Positions 26,555 through 57,219 of a DNA stretch of 64,000 nucleotides are shown piece by piece. A program made the translations under genes and the position numbers. Source of the stretch: Parachlamydiales bacterium (GTDB taxonomy: Bacteria; Chlamydiota; Chlamydiia; Chlamydiales; Parachlamydiaceae); assembly GCA_020051075.1 (NCBI GenBank), contig JAGVJP010000011.1, positions 1-64,000 on the forward strand. The letters run 5' to 3'. The notes under the pieces were generated by a model. It did no database searches. It was not told the DNA's origin and worked only from the letters and a program-made list of their open reading frames with translations. Within the stretch, counting starts at the first letter, position 1. Each line of letters begins with the position of its first letter.

Positions 26555-26857
26555 AAGGGACAAAAGGGCCTAAGGGAAAGGGGACAAGGGACTTAAAACA
26601 GGATAAGCAAAAGGGACAGAACAGGATAGGCAGGATAGGCAGGATCGCTTCGCGGCAGGATAAGGAAAATGACAGGAAAATTTAGGCAAAAGTCTAACAA
26701 AAAAATAGAGAAAAATCTGTTTCATCTTAGCATCATTATCTATCCTGCCGCGAAGCGATCCTGCCTATCCTGTTTTAAGTCCTTTACGTCCCTTTTTAGG
26801 TCCCTTTGGTCTCTTAGGTCCTTGAGGTCCCTTGTCCCTTTCCCTTAGATCCCTTTT
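26555..26857. repeat. Nested element: family A arms inside family B (GGGAC) arms
   Basis: A arms 26621-26663 / 26741-26773; B arms about 26555-26597 / 26774-26857. Confidence 0.9.
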
Positions 26858-34438: not shown

Positions 34439-34674
34439 AACCTCCACAAATCATGAGGAACAGGATGGGCAAAAGGGACAAAACAGGATAGGCAGGATCG
34501 CAAGCGGCAGGATAGGCAGGATAAAAAAAACAATTTTACAGGATGGGGAAGATGAGAAGGATGGGTATGAATAAAAAATTATATCATTTATCTTATTTAT
34601 CATTATCTTTCCTATCCTGCCTATCCTGCCGCTTGCGATCCTGCCTATCCTGTTTCTCATGATTTGGAGGGGTT
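34439..34674. repeat. Family A element between A2M and pbpC
   Basis: AAACAGGATAGGCAGGATCGCAAGCGGCAGGATAGGCAGGATA at 34481-34523 and its complement at 34613-34655; outer CCTCCA.AAATCATGAG / CTCATGATTTGGAGG. Confidence 0.92.
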
Positions 34675-42698: not shown

Positions 42699-42711
42699 AA
42701 CTTCTCCCCTG

Positions 42712-43003
42712 AGACAGGATAGGTAAAAGGGACTAGACCAGATAGGCGAGATCGGTAGTTAAGAGTGCTACTAGACAAAACAATATAACAGGATAGGCAG
42801 GATCGCTTCGCGGCAGGATAAGCAGGATAGTGGAAGATAAAATAAAAGGAGTGGCTTTTTTTACTTTTATCTTAATTTTTTCTAAATTCTTTATCTTATT
42901 TATCCTCTTTATCCTGCCGCGAAGCGATCCTGCCTATCCTGTTATATTGTTGTGGCAAGTTGCACTTTTGCTTATCTTGTATCGATCCTGCCTATCCTGT
43001 TTT
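42712..43003. repeat. Family A element
   Basis: Perfect 42-bp arms 42780-42821 / 42909-42950 with degenerate outer arms. Confidence 0.93.
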
Positions 43004-43029
43004 ACTGCTCTTGGTGCCTCTTGTGCTTC

Positions 43030-47358: not shown

Positions 47359-47432
47359 TGAGATATAGCTGACTCGAACAGCCGACCTCCACGATGTCAA
47401 CGTGGCGCTCTAACCAACTGAGCTAATATCTC
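47359..47432 (-). tRNA. tRNA-Val(GAC)
   Basis: Cloverleaf GAGATAT..GCTC-AGTTGGTTA-GAGC..CCACG-TTGACAT-CGTGG..GGCTG-TTCGAGT-CAGCT-ATATCTC-A; CCA not encoded. Confidence 0.96.
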
Positions 47433-54218: not shown

Positions 54219-55184
54219 ATGACAACGATTAAAAATTTCATGAAGAAGCATTTCAAACATTTCAATGCAGCCGTTTGTGTCGATGCCGCTGAAGGGTGGA
54301 TCAGACACTTGGACAAAGGAGGCAAAATGCTTGTCACTCTGGCAGGAGCGATGAGCACGGCTGAACTGGGGATATCCCTGGCTGAGATGATCAGGCAAGA
54401 TAAGGTCCATGCCATCTCCTGTACAGGAGCTAACCTGGAAGAAGATATCTTCAATTTAGTGGCCCACACCCACTACGAGAGAGTCCCACACTATCGTTAT
54501 CTCACTGCTGAAGATGAAGTCAACCTCCTCAAGAAAGGGATGAACCGGGTCACAGATACCTGCATCCCTGAAGATACAGCAATCCGACGGATTGAACAAG
54601 AGGTCTTAGAGCTTTGGCAAGCTGCTGATCGAGCTCAGAAGCGCTATTTTCCCTATGAATATATGTATCAACTACTCGATAGTGGACTCCTCGACAGGTT
54701 CTGTGAAATCGACCCCAAAAACAGCTGGCTGCTGGCTGCTAAAGAGAAAAACCTCCCTATTGTCACACCAGGATGGGAAGACTCGACCTTAGGAAATATT
54801 TTCGTGTCCCACGTTATCGCTGGAGACATCAGCACCTATAACATCATGAAATCAGGTCCTGAGCAGATGGCTGTTTTAGTCGACTGGTACAAAGCGCTCA
54901 GCTCTCACCATTCCATCGGGTTTTTCCAAATTGGAGGGGGCATCGCTGGGGATTTCCCGATCTGTGTCGTCCCTCTGATCAGGCAAGACCTGCAAGAGAA
55001 AGTCCCTTTATGGGGATACTTCTGCCAAGTCAGCGACAGCACAACTTCATTCGGGTCGTATAGCGGCGCTGTCCCGAATGAAAAGATCACCTGGGGAAAG
55101 TTGGATGCCACGACGCCGAGCTATGTCATCGAATCAGATGCGTCGATTGTCGCCCCCCTCATCTTCGCTTATGTCACAGGATGA
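54219..55184 (+). CDS. Deoxyhypusine synthase-like protein
   Basis: LAGAMSTAELG, CTGANLEED, PGWEDSTLGN, IGGGIAGDF, YSGAVPNEKITWGK. Confidence 0.92.
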   Translation: MTTIKNFMKKHFKHFNAAVCVDAAEGWIRHLDKGGKMLVTLAGAMSTAELGISLAEMIRQDKVHAISCTGANLEEDIFNLVAHTHYERVPHYRYLTAEDEVNLLKKGMNRVTDTCIPEDTAIRRIEQEVLELWQAADRAQKRYFPYEYMYQLLDSGLLDRFCEIDPKNSWLLAAKEKNLPIVTPGWEDSTLGNIFVSHVIAGDISTYNIMKSGPEQMAVLVDWYKALSSHHSIGFFQIGGGIAGDFPICVVPLIRQDLQEKVPLWGYFCQVSDSTTSFGSYSGAVPNEKITWGKLDATTPSYVIESDASIVAPLIFAYVTG

Positions 55185-55187
55185 CGC

Positions 55188-55941
55188 AACAGGATAAGCA
55201 AACAAACAGGGATAGGCAGAATAAACAAAAAAACAGGATAGGCAGGATCGCAAGCGGCAGGATGGGCAGGATAAAAAAAGATGAGAATAAGATAGAATAG
55301 GAAAAAAAATATTTCAAAATTTTGAATCATAAAAGGCTTGATCGGGGTGATGAAGCCTTTTATATTCTAATTTTCTATTTCCAAAATTAATCAACAACCC
55401 AACTAATAAACCTGAGGTTTTCAGATAATTGATTAATTGAGCTTGATGGGCGCCAATTAATGATTCGCAGCATTTCAATTCGACAATGATCATGTTTTCA
55501 ATAATAAGATCTGCCACATATACCCCAACACGTTGACCTCTAAATATAACCTCAAATCTCCTTTCCAGTTCAATCTTGAGACCTTTTTCTTCAATTGCCA
55601 TGAAAAGCGCCTGTTTATAAACCGCTTCTAAAAATCCAGATCCAAGTTCATTCATCACTTCAAAACAACACCCTAAAATCGTTTCGGTTATCGCAGAATA
55701 CATGTTCAAATTCATATGATCTTGCATATTTTTACTCTCTTTTCCTTAAGTTTATGACATTTTACATAAACATCACAATTAATCAAGTAAAAATAAATAA
55801 AACACAGAACTTTAATTTATAACATAATGATAATCAAGAAGATACATTTTATCCTATCTTATCCTGCCTATCCTGCCGCGAAGCGATCCTGCCTATCCTG
55901 TTTTTTTTGCTTATCCTGCTTATCCTGTTTTGTTATCCTGT
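55188..55941. mobile_element. Putative GxxExxY cassette bounded by family A inverted arms
   Basis: Left core 55227-55274 and right core 55859-55907 are inverted; outer CAGGATAAGC / GCTTATCCTG units; fills the gap between two convergent stop codons. Confidence 0.65.
55314..55727 (-). CDS. GxxExxY protein (PD-(D/E)xK-like fold)
   Basis: LGSGFLEAVY, ADLIIE..IIVELK, HQAQLINYLK, GLLINFG. Confidence 0.95.
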   Translation of the reverse strand: MQDHMNLNMYSAITETILGCCFEVMNELGSGFLEAVYKQALFMAIEEKGLKIELERRFEVIFRGQRVGVYVADLIIENMIIVELKCCESLIGAHQAQLINYLKTSGLLVGLLINFGNRKLEYKRLHHPDQAFYDSKF

Positions 55942-57219
55942 CTATCTTTGTTGAGGTCGCAGGAAGTAGAGGGGAATGCCGAGGACGAGGGCGCTAGAGC
56001 CCCAAAGGAGCTGGTGGCCTGTTGCATGAGTGAGGAGCCAGCCAATGCCGATGAGCGCAGCGATAGGGATCACAATAGTAAGGGAGCGCCTTAAACCATT
56101 GTGGTTTGCTCCAATCTGTTTGCGAAGTACAATGACCGCTAAACAAGTTGAGATGTATTGGACAAATCGGGCGACAACACTGACGACAGCTAACTGAGAG
56201 AAGCTACCTGAGAGCGCGAACAGCCCTGTGAAACTGACGGTGATGATGATAGCCCAGATGGGTGTGCCAAAGCGCCCTTTAGAGGCGATCCATTTCGGGA
56301 CCATGCCATCTTCCGCTAAAGCGACGCCACTGCGCGGCGTGATGAATGAAGAGGCGATGTTGATGCCTCCAATGGAAATCAGCATCGCTGCTGCCACAAT
56401 CCATTTAGCAGAGTCACCCAGAAATTTGTTTGCTGCGTCAGTAAGCGGGGCAGAGCTATCAGCCAGCGACTCCCCTAGCAATGCCATTGCAGTAAATTGG
56501 ATGAAGAAATAAAGAATCGAGCAGAGGCTGATCACTGTCATCACTGCTATCGGCAGATTTCTCTGCGGATTTTTCATTTCTCCAGCAGCGATCACTAAAC
56601 ATTCAAATCCTCCAAAAGCATAAAATATCAATAGAGCCGCCCCGCCAAACGCTGTCGATTCGAAGCTATGTTGGATGGGAGATAGGACGAAACTTTCTTG
56701 GGCGTAGAAGAGTCCAATCAGAATGAAAACCATTAATGAAAGAACTTTTGCAACAGTGACAACATTATTCAGGAATTTCAGCCCTTTAAGTCCGACGATA
56801 TTAAGTAACCCCAACAAACCGACGAGGCTGAGAATCACCAGAGAGCGGTACGGCTCATTCATCACTTCGGGCCAGACGGAGCTCAAGGCCGTGACAAAAC
56901 CAACGACAACAGCAGCCCAGGCAAAAATCCCTACCGCCCAACGCATCAATCCGATTTCGAATCCGATGAAATTGCCAAAAGCCTCTTTAGCATAGATATA
57001 AGCCCCGCCGGAACGAGTAAATAAGGAAGCACATTGAGCAAAACACCAGGCAATGCCAAGAACAAGGACGGAGACGACGAGGTAGACAGCACTGCTCCAC
57101 TCTCCTGCCAAAGCGACAACCTCTCCAGGAAGAAGAAAAATCCCCGAGCCGATGATGCCATTGATTCCAAGCAAAATCATACTCGTTAAACCTATCGTGC
57201 GGGGTGCCCCTTGACTCAT
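55942..57219 (-). CDS. APC-family amino acid/polyamine permease
   Basis: GIIGSGIF, GGAYIY, YAFGGFE, AGEMKNPQRNLP. Confidence 0.92.
   Translation of the reverse strand: MSQGAPRTIGLTSMILLGINGIIGSGIFLLPGEVVALAGEWSSAVYLVVSVLVLGIAWCFAQCASLFTRSGGAYIYAKEAFGNFIGFEIGLMRWAVGIFAWAAVVVGFVTALSSVWPEVMNEPYRSLVILSLVGLLGLLNIVGLKGLKFLNNVVTVAKVLSLMVFILIGLFYAQESFVLSPIQHSFESTAFGGAALLIFYAFGGFECLVIAAGEMKNPQRNLPIAVMTVISLCSILYFFIQFTAMALLGESLADSSAPLTDAANKFLGDSAKWIVAAAMLISIGGINIASSFITPRSGVALAEDGMVPKWIASKGRFGTPIWAIIITVSFTGLFALSGSFSQLAVVSVVARFVQYISTCLAVIVLRKQIGANHNGLRRSLTIVIPIAALIGIGWLLTHATGHQLLWGSSALVLGIPLYFLRPQQR

Follow-up and report, generated by a model that had tools for sequence, protein, structure and literature searches.

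A GxxExxY nuclease gene in the loop of a CAGGAT-word palindrome: a candidate member of a REPIN/RAYT-like nuclease-plus-repeat system in a Parachlamydiales genome

Results

We analysed the first 64,000 nucleotides of contig JAGVJP010000011.1 (Parachlamydiales bacterium, assembly GCA_020051075.1), hereafter the window. Between the stop codon of a deoxyhypusine-synthase (DHS)-like gene at 55184 and that of an amino-acid permease gene at 55942 lies an open reading frame for a GxxExxY protein and, as an earlier note on this DNA had reported, inverted arms bracket this frame at 55233-55274 and 55859-55901. Sequence inspection shows that the gene occupies the loop of one long palindrome, each arm of which is an array of CAGGAT words. 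The locus comprises the following features:

54219-55184, plus strand: deoxyhypusine-synthase-like gene, left neighbour, convergent with the permease gene (PF01916, E 9.2e-38)
55188-55313, no strand: left arm; outer degenerate words, core at 55233-55274, inner degenerate words up to the GxxExxY stop codon
55314-55727, minus strand: GxxExxY gene, 137 aa, PD-(D/E)xK nuclease fold, matches to PF13366 and TIGR04256
55728-55839, minus strand: 5' region of the GxxExxY gene, unique in the genome, with one sigma-70-like site
55840-55955, no strand: right arm; inner words, core at 55859-55901, outer words across the permease stop codon
55942-57219, minus strand: amino-acid permease gene, right neighbour (PF13520, E 2.3e-43)

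The repeat is thus wider than first described, as 55188-55313 and 55840-55955 take in the stop codons of both neighbours: the TGA of the DHS-like gene falls within the outer left-arm word CAGGATGA, and the permease stop codon, read on the minus strand, lies inside the right-arm word GATAGACAGGAT. The left core reads CAGGAT AGG CAGGAT, then CGCAAGCG, then G CAGGAT GGG CAGGAT, and the right core is its inverse with CGCGAAGCG at the centre. The two cores are inverse complements except for one base and the central block, which is CGCAAGCG on the left versus CGCTTCGCG (reverse complement) on the right; the arms of the gene-bearing copy belong to different variants. The left arm finds up to about 290 further BLAST matches in the genome and the right arm up to about 340, whereas the interior (55320-55823) has no other copy. 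Arm-arm pairing extends over about 86 bp. Folded as a single strand with DNA parameters, the 771-nt unit forms an arm-arm stem with the gene in its loop (-115.8 kcal/mol, z -14). The sigma-70-like site upstream of the gene (TTGATT-16-TAAAAT, 55786 to 55759 on the minus strand) has 9 of 12 matches; sites of this kind are not commoner here than in shuffles, the promoter scan having returned three against 3.1 expected.

The 137-aa product matches PF13366 with 132.3 bits (cut-off 22, E 1.4e-38) and TIGR04256 'GxxExxY' with 132.7 bits (cut-off 35, E 7.7e-39), and the genome has no other full PF13366 gene. PF13366/TIGR04256 is a large family with members in bacteria, archaea and viruses; we know of no function on record for it. 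All conserved residues are in place: G31, E34, Y37, D73, E83 and K85, invariant in 49 sequences, Q97 and Y101, conserved in at least 90%, and G29. An AlphaFold2 model (pLDDT 92.2) has its nearest solved folds among Cas4, lambda exonuclease/RecE and RecB-type nuclease domains, the best match being 4ic1 (E 2.4e-4, TM 0.46-0.56), followed by 4r5q, 3sm4, 3h4r and 4ceh. Such nucleases act mostly on DNA ends and single strands. By sequence, the protein had no match in the PDB at E up to 1, and it matched no family among the PADLOC models (E up to 0.1) or the PHROGs models (E up to 0.01). A homodimer prediction scored 0.01, below the mark, and carries no weight for or against a dimer. The conserved columns of the 49-sequence alignment contain no invariant or near-invariant cysteine, so that no Fe-S cluster is expected. 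With its invariant residues complete and a confident model close to DNA nucleases, the protein looks like a putatively active enzyme. The available part of PMC3424549 lists PF13366 as 'Unknown', and the literature passages found that mention GxxExxY or PF13366 assign it no role.

Three gene-less palindromes occur elsewhere in the window:

26622-26772, no strand: gene-less palindrome of the same arm family, with motif matches
34481-34655 (arm pair 34484-34652), no strand: gene-less palindrome filling the gap from the A2M-like stop to the pbpC-like start
42787-42999 (arm pair 42789-42941), no strand: gene-less palindrome within an intergenic gap of about 330 nt

All three had been recognised before and are real; their spacers, given earlier as 80-90 nt, measure about 90-110 nt between core arms. 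The sequence CAGGATNNGCAGGAT occurs 16 times in the window, as compared with 0.00 expected from 100 shuffles, which excludes chance, and 322 times in the genome. There the CAGGAT-arm family supplies the commonest 21- and 25-mers. Within the arms the words are oriented and mostly 9 nt apart, and the core is well kept, with one 25-mer present in 71 copies. We counted 89 arm pairs, 87 with spacers of at most 259 nt, alongside 65 solo arms; the opposite order, ATCCTG then CAGGAT, was found within 1500 nt only once. The proposed layout of one full and many empty elements was borne out: 87 pairs are gene-less, one surrounds the sole full GxxExxY gene of the genome and one an unrelated 300-aa ORF, so that, in a genome of about 2244 ORFs, a mere two of the 89 enclose a gene and the pairs do not take in arbitrary genes equally often. 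By gap type, arm pairs occupy 35 of 353 convergent, 39 of 1402 tandem and 11 of 356 divergent intervals, an enrichment between convergent genes and downstream of genes.

The gene-less copies have diverged, the best full-length pair being 85% identical and the median best identity 79%; hence there was no recent burst and the copies are old. No fragment of the GxxExxY gene was found in any gene-less copy of the genome, and we rejected the idea that these copies are internal deletions of the gene-bearing one, as 55320-55823 has no second copy. The longest shared flank words at 87 elements followed the same distribution as a shuffled-partner control and thus gave no sign of target duplication, although fuzzy ends could hide a very short one. 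No such arms lie beside the one full Y1 transposase gene of the genome (PF01797, contig C131, 9638-10003). Anchored stems of 4 bp or more occurred between words in 55 of 535 intervals versus 30 in shuffles, a weak count; among these stems a shared offset (26 of 55) and long GC stems at a few loci stood out.

GxxExxY genes of other genomes carry flanking arms as well. An inverted repeat scoring at least 40 flanks 36 of 51 GxxExxY loci (27 relatives), as compared with 3 of 400 random genes of this genome. Under the window settings used the remaining 15 loci had no flanking repeat, two of which do have arms on closer reading. In the close subclade the repeats flank 19 of 28 loci. It is hard to credit, given these figures, that an ordinary small gene was caught between the halves of a common repeat by coincidence. 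The 65 solo arms could flank a gene in this manner, and one other ORF is so flanked, but only two of the 89 pairs contain a gene, one of them the sole GxxExxY gene of the genome, and the same layout recurs at related loci far above the controls.

The arm word, moreover, goes with the protein. Members with CAGGAT, AACGAT or AATGAT words form a single starred branch of the protein tree (SH-aLRT 99), and other GxxExxY clades have words of CRCRRAG type (CACAGAG, CGCAAAG, CACAAAG, CGCGAAG or CGCAGAG). When mapped onto the tree, word type required 10 changes; 500 shuffles averaged 19.4, and not one gave 10 or fewer. We then considered 74 loci of the CAGGAT-type subclade, from Chlamydiae, Geobacter, Dehalococcoidia, Acidobacteria, Armatimonadetes, Opitutaceae and others. 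Upstream of the gene CAGGAT occurs 146 times versus 20 for its complement, and downstream ATCCTG occurs 166 times versus 24; in the distal flanks (124 kb) both words together number 138. Words flank the gene on both sides at 59 of the 74 loci, with a modal spacing of 9 nt. The innermost word forms the end of the ORF itself in several relatives, HHPD being encoded by CACCATCCTGAT, so that arm and gene make up a single unit there. The arm directly abuts the start codon in many relatives, and transcripts must therefore carry arm sequence. The link between gene and arms is thus not chance, and the word tracks the protein clade across genomes and phyla.

The mismatches between arms bear on whether the palindromes pair as DNA or as RNA. 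Arms within one element differ by 3.49 mismatches per 45 nt, as compared with 5.62 between elements, and none of 2000 shuffles was as low. On the sense strand in tandem contexts, G:T-type and A:C-type mismatches number 108 and 111 (p 0.89). Co-variation within elements with no G:U bias fits pairing at the DNA rather than the RNA level. The earlier note had offered a hairpin-flanked intervening sequence as a variant of its proposal, and this comparison lends it no support. Alternatively, the arms might work in the transcript, where, much as in hairpin-bounded intervening sequences, their long stem would be a target of RNase III or would stabilise or silence the mRNA; gene-less copies would then act like terminators or stabilisers. 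A role of this kind would agree with the strong fold of the 771-nt unit, with the preference of arm pairs for sites downstream of genes and with arm-containing transcripts. We nevertheless regard such a role as very improbable. Besides the missing G:U-compatible excess, the terminator scan found no intrinsic-terminator-like site, an Rfam search of the window returned tRNA only and no family for the arms, and the pairing of word with protein clade would be left unexplained.

Arm abundance and the presence of the gene are associated, as the proposal of the earlier note would require. Across 73 genomes of the family, a subclade gene is present in 10 of the 16 genomes that have 20 or more arm dimers and in 13 of the 57 others (odds ratio 5.6, Fisher p 0.005, the kin among them not being independent). 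The six most arm-rich genomes each have exactly one copy of the gene. Six of the 16 arm-rich genomes lack the subclade gene as assembled, five of these being 57-81% complete and one (G071) 95% complete; conversely, 13 genomes have the gene and few CAGGAT dimers.

Comparison of orthologous sites revealed turnover of the gene-less copies. Where this genome has a CAGGAT palindrome, at the 42.7-43.0 kb junction, relative G007 has an empty gap of about 35 nt and G009 a gap of about 190 nt with a palindrome of GGACCT words. The A2M/pbpC junction occurs among relatives only in G009, and there, too, it is filled by a GGACCT-word palindrome. Each lineage has amplified an arm variant of its own: GGATCGCTTCGCGGCAGGAT is present 111 times here, and five further arm-rich genomes lack it altogether. 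A 668-nt unit, made up of the gene and its AATGAT arms, stands at three loci of G072 with 98.5% identity and unrelated flanks. The many copies in G035 were not taken as evidence of autonomy, since they share an IS5-like transposase end of more than 200 nt upstream of the arm; being inside a larger IS5-like repeat, they are uninformative on the cassette's own mobility.

For the gene-bearing copy itself, no empty DHS/permease site was found in the relatives searched, where the adjacency is not kept. Downstream of the DHS-like orthologues in nine relatives, both the permease and a GxxExxY gene are missing; in G009 and G007 the permease-like genes are found on other contigs. Among sequencing runs matching this DNA no RNA run was listed, and each share was 0.13 or less. 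Run X3 contains a relative whose two flanking genes match those here at about 95%, together with a 413-nt contig over the 5' half of the GxxExxY gene that has 52 differences. None of the contigs from runs X1-X4 bridges an arm. Four joints that skip 580-611 nt in these runs extend over a mere 22-30 letters on either side, which is too little to count; they probably stem from other repeat copies.

These data bear on two further explanations. According to one, the palindromes spread by other means as host repeats, and GxxExxY is a separate selfish gene that landed in, or was captured by, their loops. In agreement with this, the gene-less copies bear no trace of the gene and its interior is unique, a second arm pair holds an unrelated ORF, the gene-bearing copy combines arms of different variants, and the other-word palindromes of G009 at the same junctions mean that several palindrome kinds use the same spots. 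Arms owned by the host, however, would make the word follow the host; instead it remains linked to the protein clade in different genomes and phyla even though the arm is otherwise altered, and several relatives have the innermost word within the end of the ORF. We therefore consider this explanation improbable.

The second explanation would make the palindromes long-term residents, either neutral or useful as 3'-end structures, and the nuclease a vertically kept, host-side processor of hairpins or cruciforms in repair, replication restart or homogenisation rather than a spreader. Several observations would suit it: the single gene copy in each of the six most arm-rich genomes, the age of gene-less copies whose core arm is still well kept, the co-variation of arms within an element, the enrichment in convergent gaps, and the repair and recombination nucleases as closest folds. 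On the other hand, presence and absence at orthologous sites, lineage-specific amplification of arms and the near-identical units of G072 all require copying to new sites, and the occurrence of this subclade and its word in distant phyla is better explained by gene and arms moving horizontally together than by strict vertical descent. On balance, maintenance of this kind seems rather unlikely.

Discussion

The earlier note took the locus for a candidate autonomous element of a REPIN-like system. None of the three outcomes that the note named as refuting its proposal came about. The layout, its recurrence at related loci and the co-occurrence of gene and arms support this view in part, with the autonomy of this copy staying putative; the age of the gene-less copies, the lack of a gene remnant in them, the pair with an unrelated ORF and the six arm-rich genomes without the gene speak against it. 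Weighing both sides, we lean towards the reading that the locus is one member of a REPIN/RAYT-like nuclease-plus-repeat system, run by a different, Cas4/RecB-like enzyme.

In such a system the GxxExxY protein would read the word arrays, probably on single-stranded DNA or extruded hairpins, and would nick or cut there; host repair or replication might then copy or move the palindromes. The gene-bearing copy would serve as the source of enzyme in trans, with the gene-less copies as its non-autonomous partners. The unit encodes no strand-transfer enzyme, so it would have to spread by break repair or template switching instead of classical transposition. A hydrolytic nuclease by itself cannot integrate DNA, and every step after cutting is therefore conjecture.

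REPIN-RAYT systems consist of REP doublets and a REP-associated tyrosine transposase (PMC3337134, PMC3116915, bioRxiv 10.1101/2022.05.22.493013). As far as the available parts of these papers go, the features in common are a single-copy enzyme gene flanked by the repeat, many gene-less units of two inverted arms with a spacer, repeats that are the commonest short sequences of the genome, co-varying arms, a master variant proper to each lineage and, here too, no detected target duplication. In REPIN-RAYT systems the repeat populations occur only together with their matching gene, and inheritance of both is mostly vertical; here 10 of 16 arm-rich genomes have the gene, and the subclade is present in other phyla too. 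The enzyme there is a Y1 HUH transposase, unlike the PD-(D/E)xK nuclease (PF13366) of our locus; the repeat there is one REP hairpin, unlike our arrays of 6-7-nt words at about 9-nt spacing; and what sets our system apart further is a gene in the loop of one palindrome and a subclade that has its word in several phyla.

Other mobile elements offer more partial parallels. Homing endonucleases cut the gene-less allele of their own insertion site, and some free-standing genes of this kind also have the PD-(D/E)xK fold. As with these genes, a small nuclease is the sole product of a selfish gene, target half-sites would come to flank it and spread would need a break and host repair; in contrast to them, our locus involves no intron, intein or conserved host-gene target, and the repeat arrays at its flanks are also present in dozens of gene-less copies. 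Like MITEs and their parent DDE transposons, the palindromes are short, intergenic, AT-rich at the centre and bounded by inverted repeats, and they come in gene-bearing and gene-less forms. Unlike them, they have no transposase between the arms and no target-site duplication above control, nor are the gene-less copies derived, as MITEs are, by internal deletion of the gene-bearing one. Reliance on DNA hairpins and the lack of target duplications are reminiscent of IS200/IS605 elements, although each end of those forms a small subterminal hairpin, whereas the ends here pair with each other.

The protein has the D...ExK and QxxxY motifs of Cas4, RecB, lambda-exonuclease and RecE cores. It differs from Cas4/RecB-type nucleases in having only 137 aa and no extra domains, and its gene is not beside CRISPR or recombination genes. 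The Cas4 family has four conserved cysteines for its Fe-S cluster and a CRISPR-cas neighbourhood; the GxxExxY alignment has no invariant or near-invariant cysteine, and the neighbours of the gene are the DHS-like gene and the permease.

More tentatively, GxxExxY cassettes might constitute a new class of mobile DNA, in which the sole protein, a Cas4/RecB-like nuclease of about 130 aa, would read arrays of a 6-7-nt word on extruded or single-stranded hairpin DNA and, together with host replication or repair, would copy long palindromes to new sites without a transposase, recombinase or HUH enzyme. Protein clades and words would then co-evolve as specificity pairs, the roughly 90 gene-less palindromes would be non-autonomous followers, and the whole would amount to a second, independent invention of the REPIN/RAYT kind, present in many phyla. 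Our literature searches found no description of a selfish DNA of this nuclease-palindrome type, and the papers retrieved on palindromic intergenic repeats and Parachlamydia, as judged by their titles and abstracts, are not about such repeats.

One gene facing about 90 gene-less palindromes, together with the pairing of clade and word, offers a cheap and concrete test of whether the protein binds or cuts word arrays. Should it do neither, the strict association of word and clade would still call for an explanation. If the protein binds and cuts its words, this would explain a common class of intergenic palindromes and the dominant repeat of this Chlamydiae genome. The system would then be a second and mechanistically distinct long-lived intragenomic replicator of the REPIN/RAYT kind, and its members might yield small, programmable-looking nucleases that read words in DNA.

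The gene-bearing palindrome and its family

The window is positions 1-64000 of contig C100 in a genome of 2.94 Mb and 133 contigs (G000). Its features relevant here are:

47359-47432, minus strand: tRNA gene; nothing else in the window matches Rfam
54219-55184, plus strand: deoxyhypusine-synthase-like (DHS-like) gene, left neighbour of the GxxExxY ORF
55314-55727, minus strand: GxxExxY ORF, 137 aa, the sole ORF between the DHS-like and permease genes
55942-57219, minus strand: amino-acid permease gene, right neighbour of the GxxExxY ORF

An earlier note had proposed the GxxExxY gene and its inverted arms as a candidate autonomous element of a REPIN-like system. The arms are arrays of the word CAGGAT. 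The strings quoted in the note are indeed present, at 55233-55274 and 55859-55901, and are inverse complements except for a small central block and one base. This block reads CGCAAGCG in the left core and the reverse complement of CGCTTCGCG in the right; the gene-bearing copy thus combines both arm variants known from G000, which occur 67 and 111 times, respectively. The outermost arm words (55176-55184 and 55942-55955) carry the stop codons of the DHS-like and permease genes, and the arms extend to the GxxExxY gene's own stop codon. When 55185-55955 is folded as one strand, the predicted structure is a single stem of the two arms whose loop contains the gene (-115.8 kcal/mol, z -14). When 55150-55969 was compared with the genome by BLAST, 55188-55313 and 55840-55955 proved common to the repeat family, whereas 55320-55823 had no other copy anywhere in G000. 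One palindrome therefore has, in place of its loop, the GxxExxY gene together with the 112 nt on the gene's 5' side. The same search found no remnant of the gene in the gene-less copies.

The motif CAGGATNNGCAGGAT occurs 16 times in the window (0.00 expected) and 322 times in the genome, and no 21-mer or 25-mer is commoner in G000 than those from CAGGAT elements (111 and 71 copies, respectively). A BLAST census with the 45-nt core arm returned 243 arms, split almost evenly between the two directions (122 and 121). They form 89 pairs in CAGGAT...ATCCTG order no more than 1500 nt apart and one pair in the opposite order; 65 arms are solo, 14 of these less than 400 nt from a contig end. The contention that the same arms form gene-less elements elsewhere held across the genome: 87 of the 89 pairs have a spacer no longer than 259 nt, one surrounds 584 nt with the GxxExxY gene and one an unrelated ORF. 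Whole elements are imperfect palindromes with a median length of 239 nt, about 86 paired columns and a median loop of 52 nt. A rough ORF prediction (2244 ORFs, minimum length 100 aa) places 35 pairs in convergent, 39 in tandem and 11 in divergent gaps, and 3 inside ORFs, compared with 353 convergent, 1402 tandem and 356 divergent gaps genome-wide. The elements thus prefer gene 3' ends, as do many bacterial intergenic repeats.

The pair with the unrelated ORF (contig C30, 10583-11777; L067:1584-2778) brackets 300 codons with a weak NlpC/P60 match (16.5 bits, under the cut-off) and about 200 nt of their own upstream DNA, between convergent HAD hydrolase and TruA genes. Arms can therefore bracket cargo other than GxxExxY. 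A second abundant repeat family in G000, with the core CTTCCGCACTCCAAACGCTTCGCG (for example on C3 near position 104), has 16-mers that reach 151 copies and a 20-mer present in 83 exact copies. Most of its members lie outside close inverted pairs, and the family has the block CGCTTCGCG in common with the CAGGAT arms.

Only one full Y1 transposase gene (C131, 9638-10003, E 5e-44) and one weak match were found in G000. The full gene is flanked neither by CAGGAT arms nor by the second repeat family; the region C131:9100-10100 shows it to be of IS200/IS605 type, with a GC hairpin just downstream that is unrelated to the arms. No link between the Y1 gene of G000 and the CAGGAT repeats was found, and so this is not a true REPIN/RAYT system.

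The GxxExxY protein

The 137-aa protein matches PF13366 (PDDEXK_3; E 1.4e-38) and TIGR04256 'GxxExxY' (E 7.7e-39). In an alignment of 49 relatives G29, G31, E34, Y37, D73, E83 and K85 are invariant and Q97 and Y101 nearly so, and the window's protein has all of these residues. No PDB chain similar in sequence was found, and no PADLOC or PHROGs model matched. The AlphaFold2 model is confident (mean pLDDT 92.2), and its best Foldseek match in the PDB is Cas4 SSO0001 (4ic1, E 2.4e-4, TM 0.46-0.56), followed by the restriction-endonuclease-like 3ijm, lambda exonuclease, RecE and LHK-Exo, and further by Cas4 Pcal_0546, the AddAB and AdnAB nuclease domains, MGME1 and Hjc. The protein is a minimal nuclease core of RecB/Cas4 type and appears catalytically intact. 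A weak PF13366 match on C38 (41000-41197; 24.3 bits, profile positions 52-112) falls within an open frame of 523 aa and may represent a fusion or a distant relative.

In the passages available, a superfamily survey gives the function of PF13366/PDDEXK_3 as 'Unknown' (PMC3424549), and another paper uses 'GxxExxY' as a domain label beside reverse transcriptase (PMC8934634). Among the papers listed in a search on palindromic intergenic repeats and Parachlamydia, none dealt with such repeats by title and abstract.

Word and protein stay together

Of 41 related genomes, 27 have PF13366 matches, and the number per genome ranges from 0 to 67. At 52 fetched loci we looked for the inverted repeat that scores best when one flank of the gene is compared with the other. 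Besides the 51 loci scored, two had flanks too short for this. The score was at least 40 at 36 of 51 GxxExxY loci, the window's included, although about ten of the 36 are not independent, being copies from one genome (G035); among 400 random G000 genes it was reached by 3 (median 19). A coincidental association of gene and arms is accordingly exceedingly improbable.

Most loci have CACAGAG, CGCAAAG, CACAAAG, CGCGAAG or CGCAGAG as their arm word, and those whose proteins are closest to the window's have CAGGAT or AACGAT. A tree of the proteins unites the nine nearest ones, which come from six genomes, in a single starred branch (SH-aLRT 99); the two AACGAT rows, each from a different genome, group together (99), as do two CACAAAG rows from two genomes (98). 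When each combination of genome and word is represented once (30 rows, 7 words), the tree requires 10 changes of word type; 500 shuffles average 19.4, and not one of them required 10 or fewer.

Within the family, the window's protein has matches at E 1e-25 or better in 23 of 73 genomes. Flank length allowed 28 of the 30 loci fetched for this subclade to be scored. Inverted repeats scoring at least 40 flank the gene at 19 of the 28, with CAGGAT, AACGAT or AATGAT as the word. In two genomes (G004, for example L062 3995-4020, and G037) arm and ORF overlap, since the innermost word is part of the ORF end: CACCATCCTGAT encodes the nuclease's conserved C-terminal HHPD.

A scan of one genome per species added 80 subclade loci at 44-72% identity, including Geobacter, Dehalococcoidia, Acidobacteria, Armatimonadetes, Betaproteobacteria and Opitutaceae. 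At the 74 with enough flank for counting, the 240 nt around the start hold CAGGAT 146 times and its complement 20 times, and the region around the gene end holds ATCCTG 166 times and its complement 24 times; 124 kb of distal flank hold both words together 138 times. At least one word stands on each side in 59 of the 74 loci and at least two in 38, and the commonest spacing of successive words is 9 nt (34 of 84). Across phyla, then, the protein keeps its word, in orientation and spacing, while the remainder of the arm varies, which is our strongest argument that protein and word belong together functionally. That the gene is simply a passenger in palindrome loops, as the C30 cargo might suggest, is distinctly unlikely.

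The co-occurrence of arms and gene expected by the earlier note was borne out in the 73 family genomes: the subclade gene is present in 10 of 16 genomes with at least 20 arm dimers and in 13 of the 57 others (odds ratio 5.6; Fisher p 0.005, which overstates the case because related genomes are not independent). Two of the ten arm-rich holders have partial or interrupted copies. Each of the six richest genomes (322, 126, 125, 108, 107 and 100 dimers) has exactly one gene match. Exceptions occur in both directions and include G071 (95% complete, 49 dimers) and G020, G047, G045, G013 and G021 (57-81% complete, 21-66 dimers), all without the gene, and G072, with 17 gene matches and 1 CAGGAT dimer, whose word is AATGAT.

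Probable pairing or copying of the arms at the level of DNA

Mismatches between arms average 3.49 per 45 nt within an element and 5.62 between elements, and none of 2000 partner shuffles was as low. Private variants such as TAGGAT or CAAGAT are found in both arms of an element; complementarity is thus kept or copied. If the arms acted as RNA, G:U-compatible mismatches should exceed A:C on the transcribed strand. No such excess was seen in tandem contexts (108 G:U-compatible, 111 A:C; p 0.89) or over all elements (248 and 252), a terminator scan gave no terminator-like site, and the arms had no Rfam match. An RNA role is therefore very unlikely, and these results favour pairing or copying of DNA, by way of arm-to-arm conversion or of hairpin or cruciform states.

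Several relatives have perfect GC-rich hairpins, with stems of 4-15 bp, between one CAGGAT word and the next. These begin immediately behind a word, stop 1-2 nt short of the following one and are mirrored in both arms. Their sequences differ (L084 in G052, L085 in G050, and L122, L130, L140 and L175). Anchored stems number only 55, against 30 in shuffles, though 26 of the 55 share the same offset. These hairpins point the same way, to DNA-level pairing; if extruded, they would restore close register between the words. In G000, the CGCTTCGCG block looks like a vestige of one.

Presence, absence and possible spread

Comparison of junctions across relatives bore out only part of the expectation of empty sites. 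The genes flanking 42699-43029 are adjacent in G000, G007 and G009; the gap measures about 330 nt and contains a CAGGAT palindrome in G000, is plain and about 35 nt long in G007, and measures about 190 nt with a palindrome of ATGGACCTN words in G009. For the gene-bearing copy no empty site was found, because the DHS/permease adjacency is not kept in relatives. The A2M/pbpC junction holds a CAGGAT palindrome in G000 and one of GGACCT words in G009. The ATGGACCTN words of G009, the nearest relative, are spaced by 9 nt (L179 on C163, about 2430-2608; L181 on C49, about 1300-1500 of the locus), and these palindromes are another word family, at the two junctions where G000 has CAGGAT. Right after the DHS-like stop, relatives have word-array palindromes of their own (L054 in G014, L056 in G024, L058 in G019, L061 in G005), with words of the CGGAGA, AACGATAT, CGCAGAG, CGCAAAG and GCGGAC kinds; gene 3' ends are general landing or growth sites in the family.

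The CGCTTCGCG variant occurs 111 times in G000 and in none of five other arm-rich genomes, and CGCAAGCG 67 times in G000, 95 in G056, 23 in G004, 21 in G044 and 0 in G069 and G057. Each lineage has thus amplified, or homogenised, its own arm variant. Recent copies are seen in G072, where a unit of 668 nt, comprising the gene, its AATGAT arms and some 165 nt more, recurs at three loci with 98.5% identity and unrelated flanks. Dozens of gene-less arm pairs in G056, which has one gene copy (C16, 23406-23768), share a distance of 138 nt between core blocks, suggesting that near-identical elements multiplied there in a recent burst. In G000, the two most similar gene-less elements are 85% identical over their full length and the median best identity is 79%; such divergence counts against recent activity there. 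Target duplications at elements were not found beyond control. The 67 PF13366 matches of G035 are no evidence for mobility of the cassette itself, because there it is carried within a larger repeat: in nine aligned copies, more than 200 nt of shared sequence precede the arm and read like the end of an IS5-type transposase gene, and at L016-L026 and L044 a CACAGAG-armed cassette lies just downstream of such an end. Dozens of C-terminal gene fragments, identical to one another and covering profile positions 66-117, also occur in G035.

Because insertion of DNA is beyond a hydrolytic nuclease alone, spread of any kind must rely on host repair, replication slippage or template switching at hairpins. 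A nuclease that serves maintenance, without spread of the palindromes, would accord with the divergence in G000 and less readily with the G072 unit; we regard it as unlikely.

In conclusion, G000 has the largest gene-less population among the 73 family genomes searched, facing a single gene. On balance we lean towards a nuclease-plus-repeat system. The sequences show the layout, the pairing of word with protein clade, the co-occurrence of arms and gene, the presence or absence at an orthologous junction and the DNA-level covariation; binding, cleavage, the form of the substrate and every copying step we infer. In such a system the GxxExxY protein would recognise its own word arrays, and the gene-less palindromes would depend on it.
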